Positions 24,003-62,791 of a DNA stretch of 64,000 bases are shown here, in pieces. Each line of letters opens with the position of its first letter. Within the stretch, counting starts at the first letter, position 1. The notes under the pieces are model-generated. The model did no database searches. It saw nothing but the letters and a program-made list of their open reading frames with translations, and had not been told where the DNA came from. The stretch is from the sequence record NZ_CP137560.1; one strand, 5' to 3'. The position numbers were made by a program, and so were the translations under genes. Origin of the DNA: a plasmid.

Positions 24003-24078
24003 GCAAAACGAAATGTTCGTCAATCGTAAAACGAAACGATATATTTTCAAAACGAAACGTATATTTTTCGTTTCTCCC
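24003..24078. repeat. left-end subterminal transposase-binding-site array: three direct AAAACGAAA(Y)G units and one inverted unit
   Basis: gcAAAACGAAAtg, taAAAACGAAAcg and tcAAAACGAAAcg, then ttTTTCGTTTctcc. Read from outside inward, the outermost unit GCAAAACGAAATGTT matches the right end GCAAAACGAAACGTT. Confidence 0.5.
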
Positions 24079-24091
24079 TCCATTACACAAA

Positions 24092-24134
24092 TAATGTGAT
24101 TATAATCGCTTTTTAACGGCATTATAATCACATT
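24092..24134. terminator. perfect 14-bp inverted repeat AATGTGATTATAAT / ATTATAATCACATT immediately downstream of the amidase stop and followed by T7 on the + strand; possible bidirectional terminator or protein-binding palindrome
   Basis: Palindrome read from the sequence. The stem is AT-rich and therefore weak. Confidence 0.35.
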
Positions 24135-24140
24135 ATTTTT

Positions 24141-24599
24141 TTATATATCCTCATACTCTGACTTAGCGTCGAAACAAGGACACCATTTCTTCCATTTTTG
24201 GGGGTCGCTACCCCAAATATCTCTATGTCCCATAATTTGTGCGCCAGGGTATTGACGATGCAGCTCTATAAGCAATGATCTTAAAGCTATTTTTTGCGCT
24301 TCCGTTCGATTATCAACAGGCTTACCCTTACTATCAATACCACCCACGTATGCTACATTAATGGCAGTGGAGTTGTAGCCTTGTACTCCGTTACTGACCT
24401 TACTAATATCTAATAACTGATGCACAACACCATCCTCGGTCACTACCTTGTGATACCCTGGGTTCTTCCAGCCTTTCGCTCTGAACTCTGCAAGGAGTTC
24501 CTTAACTCCCCATTTCTGGCTCGAAGCCGTACAATGAACGAATATTCTTTCAATCTTTCTCATTTTACATAAAAATAAAATAATTAATAAGACTTCCAA
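24141..24599 (-). CDS. N-acetylmuramoyl-L-alanine amidase (Amidase_2/PGRP-type endolysin); likely true start at M13 (24563)
   Basis: Motifs IFVHCTAS..., HRDIWGSD and WCPCFD are characteristic of phage amidase_2 endolysins. Starting at M13 (24563) removes the overlap with the upstream small gene. Confidence 0.8.
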   Translation of the reverse strand: MEVLLIILFLCKMRKIERIFVHCTASSQKWGVKELLAEFRAKGWKNPGYHKVVTEDGVVHQLLDISKVSNGVQGYNSTAINVAYVGGIDSKGKPVDNRTEAQKIALRSLLIELHRQYPGAQIMGHRDIWGSDPQKWKKWCPCFDAKSEYEDI

Positions 24600-24789
24600 A
24601 CACTATCACTACCGAATACCTTATCACGTCTTCCCACTCGAAATGTGAGAGGCAATAATGCTTATATTGATACATTTCTCTGCTTACCATTACAAGCAAA
24701 GCAAACAATCCTGTCAATATACCCATCAGTAGCCAACAAGCAAGACCGATACAGTCTCGCTTGTTGAGAGTAAATAACCTTTTCAGCAT
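24565..24789 (-). CDS. small single-TM protein (74 aa), holin/spanin-like candidate
   Basis: Internal start MLKRLF... of ORF 24565..24954, with one transmembrane segment (LACWLLMGILTGLFALLVMV). Fits with 1-nt gaps between the upstream membrane protein gene and the amidase gene. Confidence 0.4.
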   Translation of the reverse strand: MLKRLFTLNKRDCIGLACWLLMGILTGLFALLVMVSREMYQYKHYCLSHFEWEDVIRYSVVIVFGSLINYFIFM

Positions 24790-25307
24790 ACGCAAAGCCA
24801 ATAGGTAAGATATACATCGAGGAATGCCGCCACCTCTGCCCAATAGCATCCGACAGCTTTCGGCTTTGCAGCAGGAGGGAAATAGATAATAAGCACCGCA
24901 ATAGCTAATAGTAGAGTAGGGGCAAGATTGACGCTTGAACACCAGCCTACACACCCGATAGCTGCCACAATAGCGCCACCTTTATGAATAGGGTAGGTGT
25001 CCTTATCTATATAATTAGGCGCTGCGCCTACAAACATTAATCCAGCGCACCCCAAGAAGACAAGGCATTGAATACCCTTATCAGAGCCGAGCAGAGGAAT
25101 GAGCATGAGAATAACACTCGTGAACATGACAAGCGTGAACACCCAACCATAATTGCACTTGCGTTTACCTCCGACAATCTCACTGTCAGCACAATTCTGC
25201 AACTGATAATACACATCGCTCACCATATCCGGAACACCGAACCGCATAGCTGCGAGAAGAAGAAATCCTCCAAGCAAGAGGAATGAAATAATACTTAATA
25301 CATACAT
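24783..25307 (-). CDS. multi-pass membrane protein (174 aa), putative holin-like lysis protein
   Basis: Four hydrophobic segments. Sits immediately upstream of the small TM protein and the amidase. Confidence 0.45.
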   Translation of the reverse strand: MYVLSIISFLLLGGFLLLAAMRFGVPDMVSDVYYQLQNCADSEIVGGKRKCNYGWVFTLVMFTSVILMLIPLLGSDKGIQCLVFLGCAGLMFVGAAPNYIDKDTYPIHKGGAIVAAIGCVGWCSSVNLAPTLLLAIAVLIIYFPPAAKPKAVGCYWAEVAAFLDVYLTYWLCVC

Positions 25308-25367
25308 AATTTTTCATTTTATTTAGTTAAACATCACTATCATTTTCCCAATGCCAGGGAAATGATA

Positions 25368-25964
25368 TTATATTTTTAGATTGAGCTTTTCAGGATAGCC
25401 CGTCTTGTAATCATAGGCTTTCACCTCTTCGATGGTCGTCAACTTATTAACCTCTGCCTGATGAGTTGCGGTCACATTGTAGCAATCTTTTGCATACACC
25501 TCAATAGTACAGATAAGGTCTTGAGCCGCTGCGATGGGCATGACTAAACACTTTCCATCAAGCCAGAGACTCGTTTCTTCTCGACCCTTATAAGCAATTC
25601 TCTCATTACCGGCAAATACACGATCTCTCAGGTTGAAGTCGAGCCAGTGCTGCTCCCCGTTAAGGTAAAACGCATTGACGGCAGGAGATTTGTCGTAGGC
25701 AGTAATCTCTGCTATCTTATCAGCCTTTGCCTGTTCAAGTTTCAGTGCATCCATCTTAACCGAAAATTCAACAAATGCCTTCTGTATTTCTTCCTCGTCA
25801 AAGGCAGAAACTGCCATGGAGCACTCATAACATTCGTATGCGCCTAATTCCTTATTAAGCGCTTCCCCGATATGATAAATCATCAAGCTTCCAAGCTCAT
25901 ATTGCTTTTTGAAAGCTGCTTCCGGGATAATTGTCCTAATAAAATTAATCTTCATAATCGACAT
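25368..25964 (-). CDS. hypothetical phage protein (198 aa)
   Basis: Clean ORF between the RT and the lysis genes. Confidence 0.45.
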   Translation of the reverse strand: MSIMKINFIRTIIPEAAFKKQYELGSLMIYHIGEALNKELGAYECYECSMAVSAFDEEEIQKAFVEFSVKMDALKLEQAKADKIAEITAYDKSPAVNAFYLNGEQHWLDFNLRDRVFAGNERIAYKGREETSLWLDGKCLVMPIAAAQDLICTIEVYAKDCYNVTATHQAEVNKLTTIEEVKAYDYKTGYPEKLNLKI

Positions 25965-25972
25965 TTTTATAA

Positions 25973-27130
25973 TTAAACCTTAAATTTATTCATAATCTTG
26001 ATAACCTTCATATTCTTACAATAGAGTCTGTCTTTGTGTGGCATCATCATCCAGGCTTTGCGCCTTATGTGATAGCTGTCACAATAGGCAAGCAGTCCCA
26101 TCAGACTATTGATGCGTCCGACGTATCGTTTTAAGACCTGGCTCGTGGGATTTTCGATCATCCCGAGCTCGTCTATCACGGCATACAGTCGTTCCACTGT
26201 CTGTCTGTTAGGAACAAGTCTGTGAGGTCTTATCATCGTGCCGATGAATCGAACGCCATTGCTCACTCTCTGCAAGGAGATTTTGCGAGGATGTAGCGTC
26301 AATCCTAATTCGTCTCTCAGATATATCCTGCCATCTTGCAGGATGCGATGAAGCAGTCTTCTATCCCTGTTGATGACGATGAAGTCGTCGACATATCTGC
26401 CATATCCACCGTCCGTACCCACCGCCGAGACCATCATCTTATCGAAGTCGGACAACAGCAAATTGGCAAGCAACTGACTTGGAAGATTACCGATAGGAAG
26501 GCCCTTATTCTTGTCACATGTGAACAGCGACTTATTTTTGGGCAGTATATCGAATAACTTCAGGTTGCCGGTCTTGACGCAGTTCTTTGTTGGATCATGC
26601 AACACCACTATCTTCCACAACCATAGCCACCACTCGATATCCTTACCACGATACTTCGTCCTAATCAGCCGTTCCAGTTTGTCATATAACATTTTTCTAT
26701 CGATACTCATGAAAAAGCCCTGAAGGTCGCACTTAAGAACCCAAGCCTCCCGAGTATAGCCTTCGCTCACCCGTTCCATCTGGGCCTTAACCTGCTCGAC
26801 ACCGTAAAGAACACCCTTACCTTGCCTACAAGCAAATGCGCTATCGGTCAGTTCGTCCTCAAGAATATCTCCAAACTTCAACGCAAGAAGATGATGCACG
26901 ACTCTGTCGCGGAAATGAACACAGAACACCTCCCTCAACTTTGGACGAGTCACACAGAAAGCCTTGCTTGGACCTATCTTGTAGGTCAGCCGGTTAAGGT
27001 CTGCGTACAGCTGATAGTTGTTGATTATCGCCTCTGCCTGATAGCTTACACAATCGTCGGTCGAAGTCTTATGCTTGCAGCAGTCGATATACGCCTGTCT
27101 AATATCCTCGATGGAGACATACTCTTGCAT
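25973..27130 (-). CDS. diversity-generating retroelement reverse transcriptase
   Basis: Motif LPIGNLPSQLLANLL is the DGR-type I/LGxxxSQ that replaces QGxxxSP. YGRYVDDFIVI is the YxDD catalytic motif. Size is about 385 aa. Sits next to a TR/avd/VR set. Confidence 0.9.
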   Translation of the reverse strand: MQEYVSIEDIRQAYIDCCKHKTSTDDCVSYQAEAIINNYQLYADLNRLTYKIGPSKAFCVTRPKLREVFCVHFRDRVVHHLLALKFGDILEDELTDSAFACRQGKGVLYGVEQVKAQMERVSEGYTREAWVLKCDLQGFFMSIDRKMLYDKLERLIRTKYRGKDIEWWLWLWKIVVLHDPTKNCVKTGNLKLFDILPKNKSLFTCDKNKGLPIGNLPSQLLANLLLSDFDKMMVSAVGTDGGYGRYVDDFIVINRDRRLLHRILQDGRIYLRDELGLTLHPRKISLQRVSNGVRFIGTMIRPHRLVPNRQTVERLYAVIDELGMIENPTSQVLKRYVGRINSLMGLLAYCDSYHIRRKAWMMMPHKDRLYCKNMKVIKIMNKFKV

Positions 27131-27197
27131 GATAATTTGATTGTTAGATATACAGAAGGATGGCGAAAAGAATCGGGCATCATCAATATGTGATAAT

Positions 27198-27289
27198 CGA
27201 AAACTGGCAGTACGACGTTGCTGTTCGTCTTGTTGTTGTTGTTCGCACCACTGTTGTAGATCCAGGCGTTACCAGCGCCGTTCTGCGTT
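27198..27289 (-). repeat. DGR template repeat (TR)
   Basis: 92 bp aligning with 27881-27972. The 8 mismatches are at 27225, 27239, 27242, 27243, 27261, 27282, 27288 and 27289. All are T on the + strand, i.e. A on the sense (minus) strand. Lies between avd and the RT gene. Confidence 0.85.
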
Positions 27290-27402
27290 ACCGATGCCTT
27301 CTCCCTTTAAGGTCTGACCACTTCTTCTGAAGAAGTTGCGTGGCGGCATCCCTTGTCATCATCTGATGGCGGCACTCCCACGTTGCCTTAGCTTCGTGGC
27401 TC

Positions 27403-27759
27403 TCACCTCTGCGAAGATCCGAGAGAACTCCTTCGCCATCCGTATGCAAATTGTAGCAGCCTGTCTGTGAGTTTCGTCAGGTTTGTGGCCTTTCGAACAT
27501 CAAGATAGGCGAGGTCGTCGAAAATGCCGACGAATGTGCGTATCTCCCGGACAATCATGATATACTCGTCTATATATTCCACACGTCTTGCCATGCTGCC
27601 GTTTGCCAGATACACCAAGTCCAAGGCTCTTGCTGACTTCTCTGTCATCCGTTCGTAGATACCATATCTCACCACCTTGCTAACATTCCTTCCGTATTCC
27701 AACAACAGCTTGCAGAGCAAGCGTGTATCCTTGTATATTCCCAATCCTTCCGCTAACAT
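27403..27759 (-). CDS. accessory variability determinant (Avd)
   Basis: 118 aa, predicted helical and basic. In the canonical position between the target gene and TR-RT. Confidence 0.7.
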   Translation of the reverse strand: MLAEGLGIYKDTRLLCKLLLEYGRNVSKVVRYGIYERMTEKSARALDLVYLANGSMARRVEYIDEYIMIVREIRTFVGIFDDLAYLDVRKATNLTKLTDRLLQFAYGWRRSSLGSSQR

Positions 27760-27869
27760 CCTTCTGTTTTATTTATGTTAATTAATTCACTAAAATTCAC
27801 GCCCCTTGCCGTTGCCTCTTTTTACTCCTTAGTGAGCTGGGGTTGTCAAGAGGTAAAGAGGCGAAGAGG

Positions 27870-29627
27870 TCAAGGGCAAGCGAAAACTGGCAGTACGACG
27901 TTGCTGTACGTCTTGTTGTTGCTGCCCGCACCACTGTTGTAGACCCAGGCGTTACCAGCGCCGTACTGCGAACTGGTCCATCGCCAATTGCTCATGACGA
28001 ACTTGTAGTAGGCGTTTCCCACGTCCTCGCCATACAATATGGTCAGTATCTGTTTGATAGGACTCGCATTCGCCATGTGGATAAATTCCTGTCCTGCCGA
28101 CATTTTGAACCCATGCAGCTCCTGACCACCAATACTGAATATCTGGTTGTAGGCGTAGTCTGCCGCCGGCACGGAAAGGCTTCGCTCCTGTGCCTCCTGC
28201 CGGATGAGAAAAGTGCCCGACTCGCCATTGTAGTAGTTGGCGTCTGAGCTAACATTGCCGTTTGAGGCGATGCTTGTAAACAGCAGCTGCTGTGTACACC
28301 ATGGCAGCTTGGGCAACTTGGACATATTTCTAAGGTCGGAGGTTCTAATCATGAACGTACCCTTATTGATCATCAAGGTGGAGTCCGCCACCTTTAGTGC
28401 CACAACATCCTCGCTGTCTCTGCCAGTCGCGACCCAACTGTCGATGTAATACTCGTTGAGATCACCATCCACTACAAAGACGCCTGCCTTAAATTGATAC
28501 ATCCTGTAATCCAATAATCTTTGCGGAACCGCCGCCGTGTAGGTCCTTGTGTTTTTGTTGAAACTGACATAGTAACCTTCTTGATTCTCGACCTTGACGG
28601 TATATTCCTTGCCGTAAGGCACATAGACTGTCACCTGTCCCTTGCTGTCAGAGTGATACTCAACGATCTTCTTGTCATAGGTTACCGACACAGGGATACC
28701 CTCGTAAGCGACGGCCTGGTTGTCTGCCCCATACTTGGTGACCGTCACCACCACCTTCTCACTTGAATCCTCGTCGTATGGCAGATAGCTTAGGTTAATA
28801 TCTCGACTCTCCAATACGGCGGTGAATCCCACAGGAGAGATTGGCTGCGCATTTCCATACTGAGGCACGCTCAGTTCATAATACTCACCTCTATGAACCT
28901 TGAAAACAGCCTTGCCATCATCATCGGTAACGAACGTCTGCGGCGTGGTGCCGTGGTTGTATCTCACAGCTATCGAGATGCCGCCTACCTTTACGCTCTC
29001 CACCGACGAAGTGATTGTCACCGTCACCACCTCATCGATGTCGCCCAAGTTGATACTCTTCACCTCCCCTTGCCGGTTGGTCACGGTAAGCACGTGATCA
29101 ACGAGGTCTGCGTTGACATTCTCGGCTGCCGACAGGGCGGTCTTGGCGTTCTTCGAAGCCTCGCTCGCTGTGTCCGCCGCTCTCTGAGCTGCATCCACAA
29201 GTCCTTTCGCCTGCGAGATGAGTTGCTCTAATTCCACGCTTGGAGGCAGTATCACCAAGGAGGTGTCCATCTCTACGCTGTTGTCTCCTTCGTCAGTTTC
29301 TCCAAACTCGGTGTCGCCGTCCTTATTGTACTCCACGATGGCTATCTGCTCGTATTCCTTGCTCTGCCATGCGTTGCCCAATTTTCTGCCGCTCACCACG
29401 AGCGAATAGACATCCTTCTTAACGCGGTCGCCCTTTACTTCAGCGATGATTACGTTGTCGTGCTCAATGTCGAGCGTGTAGGCGAGGGTAAGGATGGAGA
29501 AGCTGCCCACCAGCTGCACCTTAATGTCAGTACACCCTGTCAATGGGAACGGCACGATGTCGCCGTTTACTTTCTTCGACACCGGAATCTTCAGTGCGAA
29601 GTCATTTCCTTTCACTATTTTTTTCAT
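27870..29627 (-). CDS. DGR target protein, tail-fibre/receptor-binding-like, with a C-terminal variable C-type-lectin-like region
   Basis: The VR occupies the last about 30 codons (...WTSSQYGAGNAWVYNSGAGSNNKTYSNVVLPVFACP). The rest of the protein is beta-rich. Confidence 0.8.
   Translation of the reverse strand: MKKIVKGNDFALKIPVSKKVNGDIVPFPLTGCTDIKVQLVGSFSILTLAYTLDIEHDNVIIAEVKGDRVKKDVYSLVVSGRKLGNAWQSKEYEQIAIVEYNKDGDTEFGETDEGDNSVEMDTSLVILPPSVELEQLISQAKGLVDAAQRAADTASEASKNAKTALSAAENVNADLVDHVLTVTNRQGEVKSINLGDIDEVVTVTITSSVESVKVGGISIAVRYNHGTTPQTFVTDDDGKAVFKVHRGEYYELSVPQYGNAQPISPVGFTAVLESRDINLSYLPYDEDSSEKVVVTVTKYGADNQAVAYEGIPVSVTYDKKIVEYHSDSKGQVTVYVPYGKEYTVKVENQEGYYVSFNKNTRTYTAAVPQRLLDYRMYQFKAGVFVVDGDLNEYYIDSWVATGRDSEDVVALKVADSTLMINKGTFMIRTSDLRNMSKLPKLPWCTQQLLFTSIASNGNVSSDANYYNGESGTFLIRQEAQERSLSVPAADYAYNQIFSIGGQELHGFKMSAGQEFIHMANASPIKQILTILYGEDVGNAYYKFVMSNWRWTSSQYGAGNAWVYNSGAGSNNKTYSNVVLPVFACP
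27881..27972 (-). repeat. DGR variable repeat (VR) at the 3-prime end of the target gene
   Basis: Cognate of the TR. Differs only at TR-adenine positions. Confidence 0.85.
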
Positions 29628-52318: not shown

Positions 52319-52341
52319 ATCTATGATGTATTAATTGATTT

Positions 52342-52899: not shown

Positions 52900-52907
52900 G
52901 CCCTACC

Positions 52908-52939
52908 CATTCAACATTCAACACTCAACATTCAACATT
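52908..52939. promoter_or_regulatory. tandem CATTCAACA-type repeat between the Mor-like gene and the G-like gene
   Basis: cattcaacattcaacactcaacattcaacatt, read from the sequence. Confidence 0.4.
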
Positions 52940-52941
52940 TA

Positions 52942-53184
52942 TTATTCCCATCCTTCAAACTTCAGGAAGGGTTCGTCGTCTTTAGGAATCTCATTACGAG
53001 GGTCGGCGCTCGCATTCAGAATATTATATAGCTGCCGCTCACTGATGGCGTACTTCGGATAGATGTACCGCCTCCAGATTTCACGATTGGATATGCCCAT
53101 TTTGGCATATTCATCGTATATCGCATTGATGTCAGCTACCCGTTTCTTGTAGCTAAGTCCGTTCCTTTGATGAAATTTCCGCAA
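52942..53184 (-). CDS. Mor/C-family-like transcriptional activator (short, 80 aa)
   Basis: C-terminal segment GISNREIWRRYIYPKYAISERQLYNIL resembles the Mor/C HTH pattern (...N..ELA..FG.S.RQIYRII). Sits at the end of the early/middle operon. Confidence 0.45.
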   Translation of the reverse strand: MRKFHQRNGLSYKKRVADINAIYDEYAKMGISNREIWRRYIYPKYAISERQLYNILNASADPRNEIPKDDEPFLKFEGWE

Positions 53185-53240
53185 AACAACTTTCCCTTCC
53201 TTACTATTTACAAACGTTATAACATGGTCTCTCTTTATTT

Positions 53241-53996
53241 CTACTCTTCTTCAGAGCCTTCCTCCTCTGTCGCTTCCTTCTCGTTTTTCGGTGCGATGAA
53301 GATACGGCAGAAACTTGGCTCCATCCTGTGCCAGATGCCCAACTTCGGATCACGCTTGAAGAAGTAGTAATTGGTAGCATTCTTCTGCACCACATTCGAC
53401 TCCTTGAAAAGCGCCATGATTTCGGCGTATTCCTGGTCGTTGAATTTATCCTCCAACTCGTAGAGTTTACTGATACTCTTGTAGTCGAGATCTCCGGACT
53501 GGTTGCGCTCCAGGAGTGTCATCGCCAACTGATACATCGGGTCGTTCTGTCCCTTCTCGCTTCTCTGCATATACTCCTTCAGGAAGGTGACAAGGCGCTC
53601 GGCTGCAAGGTCTGCACGCTCATCGAAACCCTTCACCTTACTGCAGCTTACCAGGAGTCGGAAGTTTCCGTCCGTAATGGTGTAGTTGCGCTGGTCGTCA
53701 TTCTTTACCTGTCCATACTGTCTCATGATGGCCGTGAATGCCTCCACTTCGCGCTCAAGCCATTGTTTGAAGCTCTTGGTATCAGACATTACCGTGATAA
53801 GATTTTCCTCCACACGGTGCATAAAATCGGCTCGCAGACCCTCATAGGCATCACGCTTGTTGATACGTTCATTCTTGACCTCTGCGTTGAGTTGCTGGCG
53901 GAGCGCCTCTTTCTGTTCGTCACTCAATGATGAGATATCAAACTGTCCCTGCTGAGTATTGCCTTCAGCTGGGCTGATTTTTTCGTTCTTTTCCAT
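53241..53996 (-). CDS. hypothetical early-region protein (251 aa), acidic C-terminus
   Basis: ORF in the early operon of the Mu-like phage. Confidence 0.4.
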   Translation of the reverse strand: MEKNEKISPAEGNTQQGQFDISSLSDEQKEALRQQLNAEVKNERINKRDAYEGLRADFMHRVEENLITVMSDTKSFKQWLEREVEAFTAIMRQYGQVKNDDQRNYTITDGNFRLLVSCSKVKGFDERADLAAERLVTFLKEYMQRSEKGQNDPMYQLAMTLLERNQSGDLDYKSISKLYELEDKFNDQEYAEIMALFKESNVVQKNATNYYFFKRDPKLGIWHRMEPSFCRIFIAPKNEKEATEEEGSEEE

Positions 53997-54474
53997 AACC
54001 TAATAGTATTACTTGTGATTGATTAATATTTTGTTCTTTACTCCCAAAGGATTCTTTGCTCTTCACTCTTTCTTCTTCCCTCCCAAGTCCTCCCTTGCGC
54101 TTGATGGCTCTCAGTTTGCGTTCGAGAGCTTCGAGGTCAGGGATATCCAACTGGGCAAACACCTTGCCGCATATTCTCGGGTGAGAGCAGAAGTCATTGA
54201 TGCGCTGCCAGTCTCCGGTGTTGACCCCTAACTCCTGCATCAGACGCAGACAGATGGAGCGGTGCCGCTTGCGCTGATCTCCATACCCGCACATGTTCTC
54301 GAGAGCCTTGCACATGTCGGTATATTCTCTCGTCGTCATCTCGCGAAGATGTGAGGTGCGACCCTTCGTGTACGTTGAGACGAGGGATTCTTTCTGCTCT
54401 TCCTCATCTCCATAGTGCGGTACTTTCTTGAAGGCGGCATAAAAACGCCTGTAGTTCTTAACTGATCCTGCCAT
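53965..54474 (-). CDS. hypothetical early-region protein (169 aa), Cys/His-containing
   Basis: ORF in the early operon. Confidence 0.4.
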   Translation of the reverse strand: MAGSVKNYRRFYAAFKKVPHYGDEEEQKESLVSTYTKGRTSHLREMTTREYTDMCKALENMCGYGDQRKRHRSICLRLMQELGVNTGDWQRINDFCSHPRICGKVFAQLDIPDLEALERKLRAIKRKGGLGREEERVKSKESFGSKEQNINQSQVILLGYGKERKNQPS

Positions 54475-54557
54475 CCGTATTTCCCTTTAAATTGTACTAC
54501 GTATATCATTCGAAAGCCGTTTTAACGCTGTTCTTACATCTACGAAACCGTTTACCG

Positions 54558-54839
54558 CTAAGATTGAACGGTTATTGATCCGTCGTTCAGAAGACGGTAC
54601 TCTAAGTAATGTTCACGGGCGATCTCGAGTATATAGCCCACACCTCCAGCCAGGTCCATCTCTTGAAGGATTGGTATATTATCAAAACAGAGGTATATTT
54701 TGCCCTCAAATTCTCTCGCCTGCAAGCGGCTAAGTGCCTCACGTTTGATGTTTCGCTCGTGCTTGAGCATCTTCTGACGGTGAGCTTCTTCTGAGATCTT
54801 CTTCCACCATGCCTTAACGGCAAAAAACAATTTCTTCAT
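54558..54839 (-). CDS. hypothetical early-region protein (93 aa)
   Basis: ORF in the early operon. Confidence 0.35.
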   Translation of the reverse strand: MKKLFFAVKAWWKKISEEAHRQKMLKHERNIKREALSRLQAREFEGKIYLCFDNIPILQEMDLAGGVGYILEIAREHYLEYRLLNDGSITVQS

Positions 54840-54900
54840 AATTACAAGTATTATTATTAGTTTATAATTTTGTCGCAGCTTTAGCGCTGCATTGCCTTTA

Positions 54901-55086
54901 TCAAATCCCGTCGAGTATATAGTCCATACTGTTCAGGTATTCATTTTTCATCGCATCTGCATTCATATCGGACACCTTGCCCGCTACTTCCTCATAGATC
55001 TGCGACTGGTCCAGATAAGAGAAGTCTTTCGTCTTTCTCTTGATGTATTCTATGATTTCATTTACTACCTCTTCCATAATTCTCAA
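54901..55086 (-). CDS. hypothetical small acidic protein (61 aa)
   Basis: Its start overlaps the stop of the upstream ATPase gene as ATGA, which suggests translational coupling. Confidence 0.35.
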   Translation of the reverse strand: MRIMEEVVNEIIEYIKRKTKDFSYLDQSQIYEEVAGKVSDMNADAMKNEYLNSMDYILDGI

Positions 55087-55706
55087 ATATTATTACTTGC
55101 CTGGATGAGTCCATCCTCCCATACTCTGAAGGTAGCTCCGGCTTCTCCGATGAATCGACCCTGGCAGACTGCCTCGTAGCCGACTACTCTCACTTTCACG
55201 CCCGCCATATACTTCAGCCTGACTGCAGGCTTGCCCAATGGCTGGCTCTTCGCTTCCTGCGAGATGAAGATAAAACTCTTTCGGGGAAACTCATTCACCA
55301 AGGCTTCTACCTGTGCGTATTCCCAGTGAGAGTACTGGAAGGAGTCCACGATGATGAACTTCGGACCCTTGCGCTGCTTCAGCATTCTTTTCAGGTTCTC
55401 CAGGTCCGAATCGATGCAGACTCTAAACCTGCCTTGCTCTTCCTCCATGTGAAACCGCTCGATACGCTTCTTAAAGCTCATGCTCACTTTCTCTTCATAA
55501 GAACAGTAGAGCACCACGCCGTATTCGCAGAGTTTCTTGGCGAGCTGCATCACGAAAGAGCTCTTACCACCAGCCGAAGGTCCCGAGATAAACCAGGTAT
55601 CATACGTATCCGGCTGCCCGAAGCACCGCTCCCATTCTCCACCCCAGGGTATCGGCTTGTAAGTCATCTTCAGTATCTCCCTGGGACTGTATGCTCTTTT
55701 TGCCAT
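55083..55706 (-). CDS. P-loop NTPase (RecA-like/AAA-type small ATPase)
   Basis: Walker A GPSAGGKSS and Walker B KFIIVDSFQ. Confidence 0.55.
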   Translation of the reverse strand: MAKRAYSPREILKMTYKPIPWGGEWERCFGQPDTYDTWFISGPSAGGKSSFVMQLAKKLCEYGVVLYCSYEEKVSMSFKKRIERFHMEEEQGRFRVCIDSDLENLKRMLKQRKGPKFIIVDSFQYSHWEYAQVEALVNEFPRKSFIFISQEAKSQPLGKPAVRLKYMAGVKVRVVGYEAVCQGRFIGEAGATFRVWEDGLIQASNNI

Positions 55707-55762
55707 ATTTATCTAAAGCAAGAATGCTCTTTTTACTTTTTTACCTTTTTACTTTTTTACCT

Positions 55763-56641
55763 TTAAGAGATTTTCAGCTTCTCTATCTCGGTATATACTC
55801 GTCTCAATCCGCCTCGGGTCTGTCTCACGATGGTGGCGACGTCATATCCCTCCGGGGCATTCACCTTGGCCACGATGGCAGCCTGCTTCATCAGGAACTT
55901 CTCGCGCTCCTTACCGTCGTCGGGTGTCACCTTACAGTATCGCCCACCGTAACGGCTCAGCATCTCGGTATATCCCACCTTCTTGCAGTCGATGCTTCGG
56001 TTGATCTTCTCCTTCAGTCCGTCGGCTCCCATCATATACCAGCCGCAGCAGTGCTCGGTGGCGTTCCAGAGTGCCTTCAGTTCCAGGAATGCCTCATACT
56101 GCAGATCGCCTGCCTCGTCGAGGATAATAAGCGGTGAGTCGATGGAGCGGAGGTAGTAGGTGAGGTCTTCATATACATCTCCGTAGGTTCCCTTGCTGTC
56201 AAGTCCGAACTCTGCCGCTATCTTGCGTATCAGGCGGCGCTTGGTCTTCACCTGAGAGCAGTCTATATAGGCTGCGTTCTTGTGGCTCTGTACGTAATAC
56301 TTGGCGGTGTAGGTCTTGCCGATATTAGGCTCGTCGCAGAGGATCATCGAGAGAGCAGAGCTCTGTGCGGTCTCCAACTGCTTCGTCACGATGAGGAAGG
56401 TGTCGGTCTTGCCTGTCTTCCATTCTATCTCGTGACGCAGACTTACACCCAAGCGTCTGGCCAGGCGTATCCAGTTGCCGTCGCTGATGGTGCGGTCCGT
56501 CTGTCCCTGCTTTACCATGGAATAGACTGAGGTGGCCAAACCGAGCACCTTTGCGTGCTTGCTGTCACTGTCGAAGCGGACACGGTCTTGGGCCATCGCC
56601 GCCAAAATCTTCTTTTTCTGTTCTGTTGTTATCATTGCCAT
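55763..56641 (-). CDS. MuB-like transposition ATPase (AAA+)
   Basis: Walker A DEPNIGKTY and Walker B LIILDEAG. N-terminal DNA-binding region. Sits immediately downstream of the transposase, as in Mu A-B. Confidence 0.7.
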   Translation of the reverse strand: MAMITTEQKKKILAAMAQDRVRFDSDSKHAKVLGLATSVYSMVKQGQTDRTISDGNWIRLARRLGVSLRHEIEWKTGKTDTFLIVTKQLETAQSSALSMILCDEPNIGKTYTAKYYVQSHKNAAYIDCSQVKTKRRLIRKIAAEFGLDSKGTYGDVYEDLTYYLRSIDSPLIILDEAGDLQYEAFLELKALWNATEHCCGWYMMGADGLKEKINRSIDCKKVGYTEMLSRYGGRYCKVTPDDGKEREKFLMKQAAIVAKVNAPEGYDVATIVRQTRGGLRRVYTEIEKLKIS

Positions 56642-56657
56642 AAGTTTTTGAAGTTTT

Positions 56658-58691
56658 TTATATCATGTCGATCGCACGCTGCAGGATATCTTCCTCGGTC
56701 TCGTCGTCCGTAAAGACGTCCATCGGTTCCGTGTCTGGTAGTTCTGCAGTAAGTTCCTGTATCTCTTCCGGCTCATCTGCCTGGCTGTCGGTCTTGCCTA
56801 TATCCCTTTCTGCCTCCATCGTTCCGAGAGCGGGAACCATGTTGTTATCTACGTAGGTATTGAACTCCCTTACCTTCTTCTGCTGATGATAGAACTTTCT
56901 GCGGTCTTCCTCGGTCTGTTCTGCCATCACTCGGTTGTAGGTTTCTACCTTCTCCACCTGGTCGATGAATCTGTCGCCCTGGAAGATGAACACATCCTGT
57001 GGCTTCCCGTCCTCATCCGGCAGATAGTAGGCGGTCACCTTGTAGTTGTTAGGCGCTAAGCGCTCCAATACTTCGGGCTTGCTCAGCCACCAGTCTGCAT
57101 AGGCTACTCTTACCGTAGAGTTTCGCCTTACCGAGGTCTCCACCTTCTCGCCGATATATCGGGCAAGGGTAATGGCATCGAATGGGCGCAGATTCGGGTT
57201 GATATGCTCCATCAGCACGTCCCATCGGGTCATACCGGGATATTTCTTCTGATTAGGGTGCAGTGTATGGTTCCACTCGTAGTTGTCGCGGCGGTCGTCC
57301 GCCACAAGCTCATCGAATGAGTAATACTGCTTGTCTTCCCAGGTATCATTGCTCGCATCGCTTATCTTCTTGGATTCCACTCTGTATTTCCACTTGCCGT
57401 AGAATCGGCCGATACCTACGTGATTGCGGTGGATGATGCGCCGCTTCTTGGCTCCGTTGAGGTTTTCCGCCTGTTTCTCCTGCGAGTTGAGAGGCGCACA
57501 GTAGCGCACATAGCTGAACACCGTTCCTTCCTGGAGCAGGGTGTACTTGTATTCAGACATCAGGTGGTTCTCTACCTCAATACCTGCCGGAATGCCCCAG
57601 CCATGCTTGGCTATCAGCCTGAACATCTCTCTGAAGCATTCCTTCACCAGGTTCTGGTCCTTGTCCCTGGAATAGCTGGCGCCTAACACGCACTGGCTCA
57701 CCGAATCATAGGCATAGTAGGCTTTCACCCTCAGTTTCGTATCCTTCAGTTTGCGGGTCAGATCCACGTCATCCATGGTTATCTGGCTCAGCGAGTATTC
57801 TCCGGCATGGCGGTGCATGTGTGGCATACTCTCGTGCATGAAGGCGCTCCAGCTCAGCTGACTCTTATCCCAGATAAGCCTGTTCTTCGGCTTATTCAGG
57901 ATGTTTCTGATGGTACTGTCGCTCAAACTCTTCGGATTCCCATCCTTGTCACAGAAATCTTCCGGGTCGAACAGCTCTCCAGTCTGAACATCATAAACAT
58001 CAAGCTCGCCGCATACGAAGGAGTCATACAGTTCCTTTACCTGGGAGTTATAAGGCTTATTAGGAAGGCATTGCAGGCCGATGACCAGCTTCTCCGTCTT
58101 TACGTCAACCTTTCTGGTGTTCTGGTTGCCGAACTTGCCACTGATTAGTACGCCGTAGCCGCCAGCCTTATACTCATTTACCTTCTTCCTGAATCTCAGT
58201 GTCGATTCGGGTAGGGTATGATGATAGGTCTCCTTCAATATCTTGATGGTACTTGCCATCATGTCCCAGTCGTAGCGTTCGCCCATCAGCTTGCGGTAGG
58301 CGGAGGCTCGTTCGTAGAGCTTGATACAGGTATTGAGTACCGAAGCATTCACCACATACTCCTGGATCTTCTCCGCCGACAGGTCTAACCCTGTCTGCTG
58401 CCTGCTCTGAAAGTAGCACATGGCGTGCTGATCTACCTCATAATTGGAAGTAATCCATCCTCGCAGCCTTACTTCGGGACCTCCGGGGAACTCTACTTCC
58501 ACCGCCTTGCGGTATTTGGTAGGCAAGCTATCTACGGCAATAAGAGCCGTGCAGCCGCTTGCGCCACCGCCTCGACGTACCACATTTAATCTCTTGCGAT
58601 TCACCGAAGAGTCGTAGCAACTCTTGCTCATGATGCCCGTTCCAACAAGTTCTGTCGCAGATATACAAAGTGTATTGCCGTAATATTCCAT
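56658..58691 (-). CDS. MuA-like DDE transposase; probable true start MEYYGNT... at 58691 (ORF-track start 58742)
   Basis: About 680 aa. N-terminal winged-helix-like DNA-binding domain, central DDE-type core, acidic C-terminus. The start context TTATAGTTATGG is shared with the upstream paralogous fragment. Confidence 0.7.
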   Translation of the reverse strand: MEYYGNTLCISATELVGTGIMSKSCYDSSVNRKRLNVVRRGGGASGCTALIAVDSLPTKYRKAVEVEFPGGPEVRLRGWITSNYEVDQHAMCYFQSRQQTGLDLSAEKIQEYVVNASVLNTCIKLYERASAYRKLMGERYDWDMMASTIKILKETYHHTLPESTLRFRKKVNEYKAGGYGVLISGKFGNQNTRKVDVKTEKLVIGLQCLPNKPYNSQVKELYDSFVCGELDVYDVQTGELFDPEDFCDKDGNPKSLSDSTIRNILNKPKNRLIWDKSQLSWSAFMHESMPHMHRHAGEYSLSQITMDDVDLTRKLKDTKLRVKAYYAYDSVSQCVLGASYSRDKDQNLVKECFREMFRLIAKHGWGIPAGIEVENHLMSEYKYTLLQEGTVFSYVRYCAPLNSQEKQAENLNGAKKRRIIHRNHVGIGRFYGKWKYRVESKKISDASNDTWEDKQYYSFDELVADDRRDNYEWNHTLHPNQKKYPGMTRWDVLMEHINPNLRPFDAITLARYIGEKVETSVRRNSTVRVAYADWWLSKPEVLERLAPNNYKVTAYYLPDEDGKPQDVFIFQGDRFIDQVEKVETYNRVMAEQTEEDRRKFYHQQKKVREFNTYVDNNMVPALGTMEAERDIGKTDSQADEPEEIQELTAELPDTEPMDVFTDDETEEDILQRAIDMI

Positions 58692-58693
58692 AA

Positions 58694-58930
58694 CTATAAT
58701 TTCTTTGCGTTTTGATTTTCGTACTTGCCACTTACGAGACAAGCATAGCCATTTCTTTCGAACAAATTCATCTTTTCGCGAAGTCTCAAAGGAGATGCCG
58801 GCAACTTATGATCATAATCGGCTCTTAGCTCTTTTACAGCATCTGCCAAAGATATCCAGTCGAACTTATCTCCCATTAACGGCTGCCAATATATACCATG
58901 ATAATAAAGCTTTATACAACATCTCAGCAT
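58694..58930 (-). pseudogene. frameshifted fragment homologous to transposase residues about 125-200
   Basis: CIKLY... and DKFDWISLADAVKELRADYDHKLPASPLRLREKMNLFERNGYACLVSGKYENQNAKKL align with the transposase segment ERYDWDMMASTIKILKETYHHTLPESTLRFRKKVNEYKAGGYGVLISGKFGNQNTRKV. Confidence 0.5.
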
Positions 58931-59007
58931 TGACGCATTTGCTATGCATCTCGCCTTCGCTTCAACTGTCAGGTCCTTATCGAAAAAGAACTCAGAAGCT
59001 TTAGAGT

Positions 59008-59265
59008 CTATGCAAAGGTTTTCCTTAAGCCATTTTTTATTCTAAGCATATTGCCGCTTGGAATAACCGCTTCTAGTTTAAGGCGATACTTTACAGGTAG
59101 GCTATCAACTTCAACGAGAGCTGTATTTCCTTTTGCGCCACCGCCTCGACGTACCACGTTAATGCGGTTTCTTGTAGCCATCTTTTTGTAATTAGCCGGA
59201 CTCATAATGCCCGCCTCACAAAGTTCTGACACAGATATGCAAAGTGTATTGCCGTAATATTCCAT
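59008..59265 (-). CDS. paralog of the MuA N-terminal DNA-binding domain (85 aa); candidate transposition regulator or remnant of a partial duplication
   Basis: MEYYGNTLCISVSELCEAGIMS...NVVRRGGGAKGNTALVEVDSLPVKYR aligns with the transposase N-terminus MEYYGNTLCISATELVGTGIMS...NVVRRGGGASGCTALIAVDSLPTKYR. The first 45 nt around the start are nearly identical at nucleotide level. Confidence 0.5.
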   Translation of the reverse strand: MEYYGNTLCISVSELCEAGIMSPANYKKMATRNRINVVRRGGGAKGNTALVEVDSLPVKYRLKLEAVIPSGNMLRIKNGLRKTFA

Positions 59266-59380
59266 AACTATAACCTTTCTTTATTCTTCACTGGTGAAAT
59301 AATCCCAGTTTCTACCCATACAGATGCCTACAGAGAGACATACGATGACTGTAATCAGATACCAAGTAATGTCCATAACT

Positions 59381-59827
59381 CTATCCTCCAACTCTAAATC
59401 CACGTTCCAGACGTTCTCTCATGCCAGGATTGCCGATGATTTCGGCATCCTTCTGCTTCCACCTTGCTGCCATGATCTGAAGCGACGGCATCTCTCGGAC
59501 CAAGACATTGTCCGCAGATACCATTTCCTTACCCTTGAAGAAGATGGTAGCATTACCCGTCTTCTTGTCGAACTCCAGTACCGCTCCGTTGGAGAAGTAT
59601 TGTCTGAAGCTTCCTTCATGGTCGAAAAGCAAGGTATCACCCTTTTCGGCAACCACCGTCTCCACGCCACCGTTGATTTTGGCGTACTGGCGGATACGCT
59701 TTGCCTTGTCGCTCATGCCCCGCTTGGGGTCGAAGGTGAGAGCAAGCCAGATAGCTTGGTCTGACACCTTGAAGGTCTTGCGTATTCCTTCGCGTACCTT
59801 CGTGCTTACGTCTATTGCTCTTTTCAT
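59381..59827 (-). CDS. hypothetical protein, first gene of the early operon (148 aa)
   Basis: ORF at the Ner-equivalent position. No HTH recognised. Confidence 0.4.
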   Translation of the reverse strand: MKRAIDVSTKVREGIRKTFKVSDQAIWLALTFDPKRGMSDKAKRIRQYAKINGGVETVVAEKGDTLLFDHEGSFRQYFSNGAVLEFDKKTGNATIFFKGKEMVSADNVLVREMPSLQIMAARWKQKDAEIIGNPGMRERLERGFRVGG

Positions 59828-59854
59828 ATTCTAACAATATTATAATCCTTTTCT

Positions 59855-59885
59855 AATGGTGGAGGAAGGCGGAGTCGAACCGCCT
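59855..59885 (-). other. tRNA-like 3-prime fragment (T-arm, acceptor 3-prime strand and CCA)
   Basis: Minus strand reads GGCGG-TTCGACT-CCGCC-TTCCTCC-A-CCA. No complementary 5-prime acceptor strand, D-arm or anticodon arm could be found upstream. Confidence 0.3.
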
Positions 59886-60588
59886 TTCTGGCAAATCTTA
59901 CTATGCAGTTATCATGTAAGCTTATCCGTGCCTTTAATCCATTTTCGCTCACTCCGTGCGTCCTGCATTCCAACTACCTCCAAGTTGCCGGGATACGTTG
60001 CCCGGCTCGTTGTTAATCCTGATTCTTTCTACCTTATAAAAACTAAACTTATGGCAAACATTAAGTATTTTTCGCTCAAAATGCTTATCTTTGCATCGAA
60101 ATACATGTTTCACTAAAAATATATATAGCTTATGACAACAAATGAAATGATCCTCCAGGCACAGATTACTAGCCTGCGCCGCGTTGCAGATGTTCTTCTT
60201 CTTCATTTCTGGTCCGATGCGGAGAACAAGACTCAGCTTATCTGGTTCTCTCGCTATTTAAACTACAAATACGAGAGAGATATTCTTGCTTCTTCTGACT
60301 TCGGGCTAACCGATTCAGGACAGCAGCCTGAGCTTCTTGCTCGCAGACGTTACCATTTGCAGGTTCTGATGGACATTGCTTATCTGCAAGGTAATCTTGG
60401 AGAATTGAACATAGTTCGTCGAATTGCTCCTCAAGACGCTGCACTCGCAAATAAAGTTTTTGAGAGCTACGATGGTTTCGACGAATCGCTTTTCCGTGCG
60501 ATTGACGAAATTGACAAATAGACTTTTTCATCTTAATCTCTTTTTATCAGGAGGAGAACCTATCATTCTCCTCCCTTTGTTAAACACT

Positions 60589-60795
60589 CTATTTCTTCTC
60601 AACCTTGTAGCCCTTACCTCGAAGGTAAGTCGCTACATACTCATCATCGCCCACATCTTCGAGCACATCGAAGAGATACCCCTTCACATATTCAGCAACT
60701 GCGCTTGATGATGCAAGCTCGATGTTCTTGGAGATAAACTCCACTTTCTTTGTTCTACCAAGGCCATTGAAGGCCTTCTCTACATTTTCCATCAT
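60589..60795 (-). CDS. hypothetical small protein (68 aa), divergent from the repressor gene (Cro/Ner-like position)
   Basis: ORF. Separated from the repressor gene by 158 bp that contain palindromes. Confidence 0.3.
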   Translation of the reverse strand: MMENVEKAFNGLGRTKKVEFISKNIELASSSAVAEYVKGYLFDVLEDVGDDEYVATYLRGKGYKVEKK

Positions 60796-60852
60796 TATAA
60801 CTTTTTAAGTTCATAAATTTGCCCAGCTCGCGCTTTTTTAGTATCTTTGGCG

Positions 60853-60873
60853 CGGTGTTTATCTTAAACACGG
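60853..60873. promoter_or_regulatory. near-perfect palindrome CGGTGTTTA-tct-TAAACACGG in the divergent promoter region; candidate operator
   Basis: 9-bp arms with one mismatch. Confidence 0.3.
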
Positions 60874-60953
60874 TGCAAAGATAAGCAATTTGCGAATAAC
60901 TACCAAATTTTTTGGGAATTATTTTCGCATTTTGAATAAAATAATATCGCAAT

Positions 60954-61691
60954 ATGGATAAAAAAGGCATTTTAGAGGCATTGATCGCCCATTATACAGG
61001 TGGTAATAAGTCGCAATTTGCGAAAATGTTAGGTGTTAAACCCCAAACGATTAATACCTGGGATTCTCGCAGTACCTTTGATATTGAGTTAATATACTCA
61101 AAGTGCGAACATATTTCAGCAGATTGGCTCTTGACAGGCGAAGGACCAATGCTCAAAACGAGTACTTCCGGCGCTGATGAAGCACTATGTCCTGAAGAAA
61201 AGGAGAGAAAAACGGAGAAAAATGGAGAAAAACAGAGAAGACCAGAGAAAAATAGAGAATATTCTTCTCGAATCCATAAGCTGCCGGAGGGAAGCATTGA
61301 GGGAATTCCACTCATACCAGCTAGCGCAATGGCAGGAGCATTCACTTCCGACGTGTCTATAATGGAGTACGAATGCGAGCACTATATCATACCAGACTTC
61401 AAGGGCGCCGACTTCCTTATCAGGGTAAAAGGCGACTCTATGCAGCCTACATACTACTCTGGCGACCTCGTGGCTTGTCAGAAGATACCGATGAACGACG
61501 TCTTCTTCCAATGGAACAAAACCTATGTTCTCGACACCAACCAGGGACCAATCATCAAGCGAGTACTACCGGGCAAGGATGATGATCATATCTGCATCGT
61601 CTCTGATAACGAGAAATACCCACCATTCGAGTTGGAGAAGTCATATCTCCACGCCATCGCCCTCGTTAGGGGCATCATCCGTCTGGAGTAA
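60954..61691 (+). CDS. CI/LexA-like repressor: XRE-type HTH plus S24 peptidase
   Basis: N-terminal HTH (KSQFAKMLGVKPQTINTWDS). C-terminal S24 motifs GDSMQP (Ser nucleophile) and IIKRV (Lys). Confidence 0.8.
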   Translation: MDKKGILEALIAHYTGGNKSQFAKMLGVKPQTINTWDSRSTFDIELIYSKCEHISADWLLTGEGPMLKTSTSGADEALCPEEKERKTEKNGEKQRRPEKNREYSSRIHKLPEGSIEGIPLIPASAMAGAFTSDVSIMEYECEHYIIPDFKGADFLIRVKGDSMQPTYYSGDLVACQKIPMNDVFFQWNKTYVLDTNQGPIIKRVLPGKDDDHICIVSDNEKYPPFELEKSYLHAIALVRGIIRLE

Positions 61692-61950
61692 CCCCGTTTC
61701 ATACCCACCTCCAGGATGCGTATCATTTTCCCGGCTCTGGGAAGATGGTACACCCCCAAAAAGTACCCCCAGAGTGTTCCCCCTCCCCCTGGAAGGCGCT
61801 AAAATAGGCTTAAAAGCCCCTATATACTATATATAATAAGGTGTAAGCGCTAAAAACCGAAGTTCAAAAAGGGTATGTTTCCTGCACATAAAGTGGCAAA
61901 AGTGGTAGTTTTCCTACCCAAGCTATCGTTATGCCGTTTTACCCACTTTT

Positions 61951-62007
61951 GCAAGTCCAGTTTTTGAAAAATGCAAGTCCAGTTTGCAAGTCCACCTGCA
62001 AGTCCAC
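61951..62007. repeat. four tandem-ish copies of GCAAGTCCA near the right end of the prophage
   Basis: Copies at 61951, 61973, 61986 and 61999. Confidence 0.4.
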
Positions 62008-62032
62008 TACCCAAAAATGGCCATTTCGGGCA

Positions 62033-62059
62033 CAAAAAAGGGGAGCCGTAAAGCTCCCC
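62033..62059 (-). terminator. rho-independent terminator on the minus strand (GGGGAGC-tttacg-GCTCCCC followed by TTTTTTGTG)
   Basis: 7-bp GC stem. The U-tract lies on the minus strand (A7 on the + strand at 62034-62040). Confidence 0.5.
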
Positions 62060-62160
62060 GAATAACCCAAAATAATCCCAAAAATACCCCCAAAATCATC
62101 CCCGGCTTATAACATCATTCGAACACCGTCCGAATACCCTGTAATTTGCGTTCTAAGCCC

Positions 62161-62406
62161 TCATTCTTCCTCAGCTGATACATCACCCATTCGACCACCC
62201 GAAATGAGCGTAGATTGCTTTATTATAGCGCGTTTCGTGCATACTGTCCCGTTTCCTCCAAGCCCTGCGTGGAGCAGATATCCCTTGGTTGCACCCACCT
62301 CTTCAGCCGTCAGCACGGTATATACGGCCGAGATGGAACTGAAATAGAAGTCTTTCCGTCCTTCATGCTTGCCCACCAACAGGTGGACGTGTACTACTTT
62401 TGCCAT
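62161..62406 (-). CDS. hypothetical small protein (81 aa), own transcription unit bracketed by two terminators
   Basis: ORF MAKVVHVHLLVGKHEGRKDFYF.... An upstream -7-like TATATTTG is present. Confidence 0.35.
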   Translation of the reverse strand: MAKVVHVHLLVGKHEGRKDFYFSSISAVYTVLTAEEVGATKGYLLHAGLGGNGTVCTKRAIIKQSTLISGGRMGDVSAEEE

Positions 62407-62554
62407 TTCTTATCGTTTAAAGTTCCACATCGGGAGCCATGCATCATCTAAGCGCATCGCCCTCGTTATCGGTTGCAAATATACCAAATATTTATTATTT
62501 GGAATGTTTTTGCGTCTTAAATATTCCTAAACCCCTTATTTTTCCACACCATAA

Positions 62555-62583
62555 GGCACAAAAAAAGCGGCTCACAGCCGCCC
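62555..62583 (-). terminator. rho-independent terminator on the minus strand (GCGGCT-gtga-AGCCGC followed by T7)
   Basis: The + strand has A7 at 62560-62566 and then GCGGCTcacaGCCGC. Confidence 0.45.
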
Positions 62584-62704
62584 CGTATCATCATTAAGCC
62601 CTCACGCTCTTACAATCTTTCCTGCATCATCAACCCCCACACAGTCCGCCCCGGTACCTCAGATCCTCAAACAGGTCATTTACCCCATGTTAACCCCATG
62701 TTAA

Positions 62705-62791
62705 CCTAATGTAAACTTTCGCCCTATCTTTTCCACCTCCAGGCACTCCAAAATTAAACCAAAATTAAAGCTATGTAAACGTTTCGTTTTG
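62705..62791. repeat. right-end subterminal transposase-binding sites, inverted relative to the left end
   Basis: Read from outside inward: GCAAAACGAAACGTTTACATAG, ending at 62791, and a second site GGGCGAAAGTTTACATTAG at 62707-62725. Confidence 0.5.

Follow-up and report, generated by a model that had tools for sequence, protein, structure and literature searches.

A Hankyphage-like transposable prophage within the traN gene of a Bacteroidales conjugative transposon

Transposable phages and conjugative transposons (CTns) are both known kinds of mobile element, and for the one to land in the other is to be expected now and then. Classic insertions of phage Mu into the F and RP4 plasmids inactivated the gene that was hit and exerted polarity; those cases were laboratory constructs in Enterobacteria. 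For Hankyphage, a transposable phage of Bacteroides, spread by insertion into plasmids or integrative and conjugative elements (ICEs) has been raised as a possibility (PMC12135933), and our literature search found no paper describing an insertion of Hankyphage type into a conjugative element. On the conjugative side, TraN of the Bacteroidota-type mating apparatus (MPF-B) is a homologue of VirB9, and traG-N were reported to be essential for transfer (PMC4027160); in CTnERL, insertion into traN lowered transfer 100-fold, to ∼1% of wild type, and insertions into traO, traP, and traQ raised it (PMC3809561). Here we analyze 64,000 nucleotides of a plasmid (sequence record NZ_CP137560.1; "the window" denotes this whole stretch), in which a prophage of 38.9 kb interrupts the traN gene of a CTn. 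Unlike the Mu insertions into F and RP4, this event is natural and concerns an ICE of gut Bacteroidales.

We regard it as highly probable that a Hankyphage-like temperate transposable phage inserted by MuA/MuB-type DDE transposition, at an essentially random site, in traN of a Bacteroidales CTn. Under this explanation, the phage would have transposed into codon 236/237 of traN in a CTn with an MPF-B type IV secretion system (T4SS), and TraN, a VirB9-like core component, would thereby have lost its last 46 conserved residues, with self-transfer of the element reduced or gone. A preliminary description of the window, drawn from the letters of the sequence, had already proposed that a transposable phage hopped into the tra operon, and the empty-site reference and target duplication presented below bear this out.

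Insertion of the prophage into traN

The insertion was resolved by comparison with uninterrupted copies of the same element. An exact-protein look-up of the 174-aa gene next to the prophage returned ten long contigs with an uninterrupted CTn; the gene is listed in 117 blocks, and the 10 places inspected were all uninterrupted. In each of these 10, TraN is 282 aa long and its stop lies 14 bp before the 174-aa gene. When the window was compared by megablast with reference loci L002–L011, the left match stopped at 23994 and the right match restarted at 62891, with flank identities of 98.5–100%. The empty-site reference L008 matched 10,683 bp to the left of the prophage and 1,110 bp to its right at 100.000% identity; because the flanks are 100% identical to an uninterrupted element, the insertion event is very recent. 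The features that define the site are:

23995–62891, unstranded: complete transposable prophage, 38,897 bp (alignment to the intact CTn, megablast of the flanks against reference loci, conserved termini)
23991–23994, unstranded: left copy of the 4-bp target-site duplication (TSD) TCTT (intact-site alignment)
62892–62895, unstranded: right copy of the TSD TCTT (intact-site alignment and paired ends)
62839–63600, minus strand: truncated traN, with 236 native codons (63600–62893) plus 17 phage codons (PF13595, E 5.7e-39, profile positions 1–209 of 245)
23851–23991, minus strand: stranded 3' remnant of traN, codons 237–282 plus stop (100% identity to the intact C-terminus)

A three-way alignment of the junctions together with a protein alignment showed that traN is split after nucleotide 709 of 849; the phage follows codon 236 of 282. 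The protein encoded in the window has only 253 aa, against 282 aa in the intact element: it tracks intact TraN to residue 236 and then reads through 17 codons of the phage end (IKGTKRSVYKRMRGKMR, then stop). The 46 missing C-terminal codons and the stop are stranded on the far side of the phage, where the encoded peptide is 100% identical to the intact C-terminus; an exact-protein look-up of this 46-aa remnant gave no match. At nucleotide level the intact site reads GGTCA-TCTT-CTTCAA (empty site in full, GGTCATCTTCTTCAA), the left junction GGTCATCTT/TATAATCC, and the right junction CCCTTTA/TCTTCTTC. The phage thus lies inside traN and not between genes, since alignment with the intact element splits the gene at residue 236. 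The preliminary description had put it in an intergenic position at 24003–62791; those limits are off by 8 bp on the left and 100 bp on the right, where 62791 is in fact the edge of an inner putative transposase-binding repeat (R2, below) located 100 bp inside the true end. The uninterrupted junction of traN with the 174-aa gene that it anticipated does exist, as does the empty site, although the insertion point falls within traN.

The phage ends are of the TA...TA type, 5'-TATAATCCGCAAAACG... and ...CGTTTTGTGCCCTTTA-3', and agree with those of related phages. The left terminus, TATAATCCGCAAAACGAAATGTTC, was identical across 70 IMG/VR contigs, one of which has TGTAATCC at the first bases; the first two bases were accordingly TA in 69 of the 70 and TG in one. 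The flanks of these contigs are unrelated and differ right up to the first T. Read inward, the right terminus is T-A-(A/T/G)-AGGGCACAAAACGAAGCG in ∼26 loci, whose flanks diverge from the base before the T. Homology to phage relatives stops at 62891, and both ends are in register when the right-end T is counted as phage, giving conserved family ends of TATAATCCGCAAAACGAAATG and GGGCACAAAACGAAGCGTAT.

Among the eight contigs that hold both ends (the window included), seven have a perfect 4-bp duplication, and at least three of them rule out a 5-bp repeat. A 5-bp duplication, ATCTT, with an insert at 23995–62890 was considered for the window and dropped, because every relative has a T at the position just beyond that right end; the 5-bp reading is also ruled out by the paired ends, which have just 4 bp in common. 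For Hankyphage itself, Benler et al. give a 5-bp repeat (PMC6199706); in p00-type Hankyphage contigs we found a 4-bp duplication in two of three paired cases. Two IMG/VR contigs, 3300045988_093731 and 3300045988_150546, carry both phage ends with unrelated 4-bp flanks and no duplication, which could reflect transposition-mediated rearrangement or chimeric assembly.

Such contigs bring in the possibility that the nested structure is itself an assembly artefact, a chimera of CTn and phage reads joined via a short shared sequence. In gut metagenomes the phage family is both polymorphic and very common, 2 of 11 paired-end contigs lack a TSD, and mis-joins or rearrangements occur in assemblies of this kind. 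A chimera would nevertheless have had to make both joins within a single target site, at the same 4 bp and with a perfect duplication, and to cut the phage exactly at its family-wide termini. Moreover, the truncated TraN was recovered from one other, independent assembly, Logan contig L001 (3,961 bp, SRR29689121), which crosses the right junction with 1,745 bp aligned at 100% identity. We therefore give the artefact very little credence.

The tra operon on either side of the prophage

The flanks were identified as CTn sequence from the genes they carry:

63678–64000, minus strand: 3' part of traM, running off the window (PF12508, E 4.8e-17, ORF 63678–63956)
17820–23836, minus strand: six CTn genes downstream of traN, encoding proteins of 174, 224, 511, 282 (M23 peptidase), 94, and 692 aa (order and sizes as in intact elements)

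TraM has 414 aa in the reference loci. Intact TraN passes the NCBIfam equivalog TIGR03780 (238.6 bits vs. a cutoff of 164.1), and because this match spans residues 1–274, the segment lost from the window copy lies within the conserved family domain. Together with TraM and TraN, the left flank encodes a 1,458-aa protein with ArdcN, MPTase-PolyVal, and MutS_I domains and a glucosaminidase-M23 protein, so that the preliminary assignment of the flanks to a CTn holds, as does that of the genes at 62.8–64 kb to conjugation. Upstream, the reference loci that are 98.5–100% identical to the flanks carry P-loop_TraG (VirB4-type), DUF5045, and TraM, with a weak TraJ match, and in reference L010 tyrosine integrases lie beside the tra genes. 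The element resembles CTnDOT and CTnERL in its minus-strand tra operon, in having a TraG/VirB4-type ATPase, a weak TraJ-like match, TraM, and TraN in the same order, and in its large ArdC-type and lytic-enzyme accessory genes.

It differs from them beyond traN, where the genes are not recognizable as traO, traP, or traQ. The six-gene minus-strand block noted previously is real and colinear with the uninterrupted reference elements; the Pfam and NCBIfam models of TraO, TraP, and TraQ found no match among its six proteins, and the label "TraO" given earlier to the 174-aa gene was a guess from position. The 174-aa protein has a signal peptide and occurs in identical form in many genera, and homologues of the 174-aa gene and of the 224-aa gene stand behind traN in ∼50 species of Bacteroides, Phocaeicola, Prevotella, Alistipes, and others. 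The genes beyond traN make up a separate module, conserved and unannotated, of an ICE family that is very widely shared.

Near-identical copies of the CTn family are found across genera. Among species-representative genomes, the closest TraN (77% identity) is from Leyella stercorea, and Bacteroides and Phocaeicola homologues are 53–63% identical; one genome, L. stercorea MSK.21.24, has three TraN-type loci. From the closest TraN and from the named homologues of the phage (Prevotella sp., Hoylesella, Phocaeicola oris), the host is probably a member of the Bacteroidales, family Prevotellaceae. At the far left, window positions 1–5787 have a low G+C content (34%) and include a gene for a 790-aa GmrSD_N-domain protein (179–2551), a putative type IV restriction enzyme, which suggests defense cargo or a different genomic island.

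Three hairpins near the phage ends bear on transcription of the interrupted operon:

62584–62564, minus strand: intrinsic terminator T1, 307 bp inside the right end and facing transcription from traN (terminator scan; kept in relatives)
62059–62040, minus strand: intrinsic terminator T2, after the 81-aa gene of the phage (terminator scan)
24084–24147, minus strand: AT-rich hairpin just inside the left end, behind the amidase gene (predicted RNA fold, −20.7 kcal/mol, z −4.66)

Both right-end terminators had been named in the preliminary description. The stem of T2 is kept, with a varying loop, in 53 related loci; as conserved features of the phage, T1 and T2 are not adaptations to the traN site. 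In intact elements the six downstream genes are presumably co-transcribed with traN, given a spacer of only 14 bp. The insertion has put 38.9 kb between them and the tra promoter side, and we infer that they are uncoupled from the tra promoter, with T1 blocking read-through. Through the damage to traN, self-transfer of the CTn is probably reduced or lost.

The late, DGR (diversity-generating retroelement), and lysis genes of the phage run in the direction of the tra operon, making it possible that late or lysis transcription leaks from the left end into the CTn genes. The left-end hairpin has a poor U-tract and fails a scan for G+C-rich terminators; judged from its predicted fold, it is a possible weak terminator ahead of those genes. 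A sigma-70 promoter scan was set aside, since promoters of Bacteroidota deviate from that consensus.

Transposition machinery and relation to Hankyphage and Mu

The prophage encodes a transposase and an ATPase partner, and has repeats at both ends:

56658–58691, minus strand: MuA-like transposase, 677 aa from ATG (phrog_310, E 3e-54; homologues called at 676–677 aa)
55763–56641, minus strand: MuB-like AAA+ target-DNA activator, directly downstream of the transposase gene (phrog_296, E 1.2e-34; AAA_22)
24004–24059, plus strand: three direct copies of the end repeat CAAAACGAARYG, L1 at 24004, L2 at 24027, and L3 at 24048 (motif search)
62780–62882, minus strand: right-end repeats R1 (62871–62882) and R2 (62780–62791) (motif search)

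In tblastn, the N-terminus of the transposase is ∼35% identical, over the first 30%, to the annotated "Mu A-like transposase" of Hankyphage p00 (BK010646), and the protein also matches transposases of Porphyromonas phages. A mechanically called 694-aa version of the ORF, starting at a TTG (58742), was rejected: the true start is an ATG 17 codons downstream, and an exact look-up of the 694-aa form was empty. The best PDB sequence match of the MuB-like ATPase is the "ATP-dependent target DNA activator B" of Mu (8xvb, E 0.0018). The 12-nt motif CAAAACGAARYG has six matches in the window vs. 1.19 expected, five of them ≤110 bp from the phage ends and the left three inverted relative to the right two; as judged from this arrangement, the repeats are presumed to be transposase-binding sites.

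An AlphaFold model of the transposase, built from 37 sequences, reached a mean pLDDT of 60.6. According to Foldseek, its N-terminal domain resembles the winged-helix domains of the Mu transposase (1tns) and the Mu repressor (target-normalized TM-score 0.61). The top PDB matches of this low-confidence model were TnsB of a CRISPR-associated transposon (E 6.3e-4), IstA, and retroviral integrases, which, given the unreliable core of the model, are suggestive only. Because these fold matches coincide with a MuB partner, end repeats, target duplications, and random sites, the protein is very likely a DDE enzyme of the Mu/Tn7 family, with a putative catalytic triad. In an hhalign alignment without significance, an invariant glutamate, E374 (in IEVEN), lies opposite D336 of Mu MuA, an unreliable hint, from this alignment, of a D-E-E rather than a D-D-E triad.

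Target-site choice is essentially near-random, as relatives of the phage sit at many unrelated chromosomal sites. The identical MuB occurs in 118 assembly blocks, and the neighbors of identical copies of MuB or of the 81-aa protein include genes for ProRS, RimM/Dxr, RuvC, heme synthesis, SusC/D, and ribosomal proteins, among others. The nesting of phage in CTn would then be a by-product of random transposition and not an adaptation.

The phage is distantly related to the Hankyphage of Bacteroides. Like p00, it has a repressor and early region, MuA, MuB, and an inverted block of MuF, portal, gp36, TerL, and TerS, followed by protease, capsid, tail, and tape measure genes and then, at the far end, a DGR target with its variable repeat (VR), the template repeat (TR), and the reverse transcriptase (RT). 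The two also agree in their termini (5'-TA...TA-3', with G-rich and AATCCG motifs and then AAACGA-type repeats) and in inserting at random sites. The window phage is shorter (38.9 vs. 42.8 kb) and ends with a lysis amidase where p00 has a thymidylate synthase and a methyltransferase; its likely host is of the Prevotellaceae, whereas p00 has a Bacteroides host. Hankyphage variants have been called at >95% nucleotide identity (PMC6199706). The window phage is below that threshold, and its early region has no megablast match to p00.

With Mu it shares a transposase and an AAA+ activator beside a divergent repressor near one end, several transposase-binding repeats at each end, near-random insertion with a short TSD, and genes for Mu-type portal, F, gp36, G, protease I, and DUF3164. 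In contrast to Mu, it has a siphovirus-like rather than a contractile tail, an inverted packaging block, and a DGR where Mu uses a G-segment invertase for host-range variation; its transposase, too, is unlike that of Mu in escaping detection by Pfam and PDB sequence searches.

This last point is one of several that weigh against insertion by a MuA/MuB-type enzyme with loss of transfer. Neither the transposase itself nor 120 homologues gave a Pfam match, a PDB sequence search with the transposase was empty, and a 16-sequence family profile aligned by hhalign with Mu MuA reached a probability of <1%. In the AlphaFold model, the presumed catalytic core (residues 280–500) has a pLDDT of <50. The transposase is therefore the weakest link of the "Mu-like" label. 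The ends, TA...TA with a 4-bp TSD, differ from the TG...CA and 5 bp of Mu. On the side of consequences, polarity and loss of conjugation are both inferred, and disruption of traN in CTnERL lowered transfer without abolishing it; by analogy, the composite may keep some mobility. Finally, Hankyphage itself is reported to make defective particles in some hosts, B. thetaiotaomicron being one of them (PMC12135933).

Gene content, relatives and mobility of the nested phage

Apart from the transposition genes, the following phage features were assigned:

60954–61691, plus strand: CI/LexA-type repressor, helix-turn-helix (HTH) plus S24 peptidase, divergent from the early operon (PF00717, E 8.8e-13; Phage_CI_repr)
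45057–51741, plus strand: packaging block with TerS, TerL, gp36-like adaptor, Portal_Mu, Mu F, and a small DNA-binding protein (family matches)
37671–44982, minus strand: head and tail genes, with protease/scaffold 43807–44982, major head 42698–43756, major tail 41379–41867, and tape measure 37671–40331 (family matches)
25973–29627, minus strand: DGR, with RT 25973–27130, TR 27195–27287, Avd 27403–27759, and target gene 27870–29627 (RVT_1; phrog_3206; TR/VR pair)
24141–25307, minus strand: lysis region, with Amidase_2 endolysin 24141–24599 (PF01510, E 4.3e-14) and multi-pass membrane protein 24783–25307 (translations)
62161–62406, minus strand: end-proximal 81-aa gene (phrog_10608)

The morphogenesis genes of Mu type are Portal_Mu (E 3.6e-77), Phage_Mu_F, Mu-like_Pro, Phage_tail_S (Mu G), and DUF3164, and close relatives of the phage also encode Phage_Mu_Gp36; the tail is of siphovirus-like type. 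These family matches and the G+C content of 47.3% compared with 42.1% and 42.2% in the flanks agree with the preliminary account of a GC-richer block with MuA/MuB-like, virion, and lysis genes. The packaging block lies opposite in strand to all other structural genes, and since p00 has the same inversion, this is a family trait and not a local rearrangement. The amidase is shared with unrelated phages, and when it was used as a probe for left ends, none of the amidase-matched loci carried a phage end.

Identical copies of the 81-aa protein occur in 3,119 assembly blocks, always beside a phage end, and its gene is bracketed by two strong terminators; such conservation is unusually strong for an accessory gene of a phage. 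Between the 81-aa gene and the repressor gene, in noncoding DNA on the plus strand, are four copies of GCAAGTCCA (61951, 61973, 61986, and 61998; span 61951–62006), which could be an operator or another protein-binding array.

The gene set of the phage is apparently complete: coding is dense and uninterrupted, and all core modules (repressor, early transposition, head, tail, DGR, and lysis) are present. This bears on whether the prophage might be a decaying or co-opted remnant, kept for instance for its DGR or as a tailocin, and no longer mobile. The defective Hankyphage particles mentioned above (PMC12135933) would fit such a remnant, as would the 1,754-, 906-, and 585-aa tail-region proteins, which have no recognizable family. 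The last of these, the DGR target, carries the VR (27878–27970) at the 3' end of its gene and matches no known family; the TR/VR pair is 93 nt long. All seven of seven TR/VR differences fall at coding-strand adenines, and on this pattern, which is typical of an active DGR, the element appears to be active. Further evidence against decay comes from the ends and their repeats, both intact, from the fresh TSD, and from flanks that have not diverged since insertion, in addition to the uninterrupted coding. We consider a defective or domesticated prophage improbable and favor a temperate phage that transposed into traN as an intact element.

The lineage to which it belongs is very abundant in gut metagenomes and has no close relative among GenBank phages: the early region (52000–62890) had no megablast match in 50,697 GenBank phage records, whereas we found 62 IMG/VR loci with a transposase 52–97% identical and 4,059 transposase homologues in a large protein collection. 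In one relative (L331), the prophage adjoins a gene (1225–3309) with BT4734-like, VapE-like, and DUF3874 domains. Genes of this type are typical of integrated mobile elements of Bacteroidales, and the L331 prophage may be a second nested insertion.

An alternative view of the nesting is functional hitchhiking, in which the CTn still excises and conjugates, alone or with help, and carries the prophage to new species. This has been proposed for Hankyphage by the authors of PMC12135933. Residual transfer of ∼1% in traN mutants of CTnERL and increased transfer upon downstream mutations (PMC3809561) are in its favor, as are the near-identical CTn copies across genera, and the three TraN-type loci in L. 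stercorea MSK.21.24 make trans-complementation conceivable. The distribution of the composite speaks for a different history. Its right junction was seen in only one other assembly, both the left and right junctions were absent from JGI metagenome contigs, and the intact site is abundant. A tblastn search with 19 CTn proteins against all fetched viral loci found no other phage copy in the CTn of the window. In addition, TraN is cut within its conserved domain, and the identity between flanks and empty site points to a very young insertion, without any past spread. We therefore think hitchhiking unlikely in this case, and prefer an incidental transposition after which conjugation could mobilize the composite only rarely, or with a co-resident related element providing the T4SS functions.

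Read as a random insertion, the window is an instance of mobile elements harming each other, in which a phage truncates a VirB9-like T4SS component and severs six genes of the operon. It provides a base-pair-resolved natural case of a phage in a CTn with a matching empty site, and hence a defined construct with which to address the question of interspecies conjugation. It also revises the parameters of this phage group, namely TA...TA ends, a 4-bp duplication, and a transposase family invisible to Pfam. The broader idea that Hankyphage-type phages ride conjugative elements, with T4SS functions supplied in trans if needed, into species that the virion cannot infect seems to us doubtful at present. 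If it is true, the ICE vehicle route would help to explain the unusually broad host range of Hankyphage-type phages, and the window would be a snapshot of the first step of ICE-borne phage spread.

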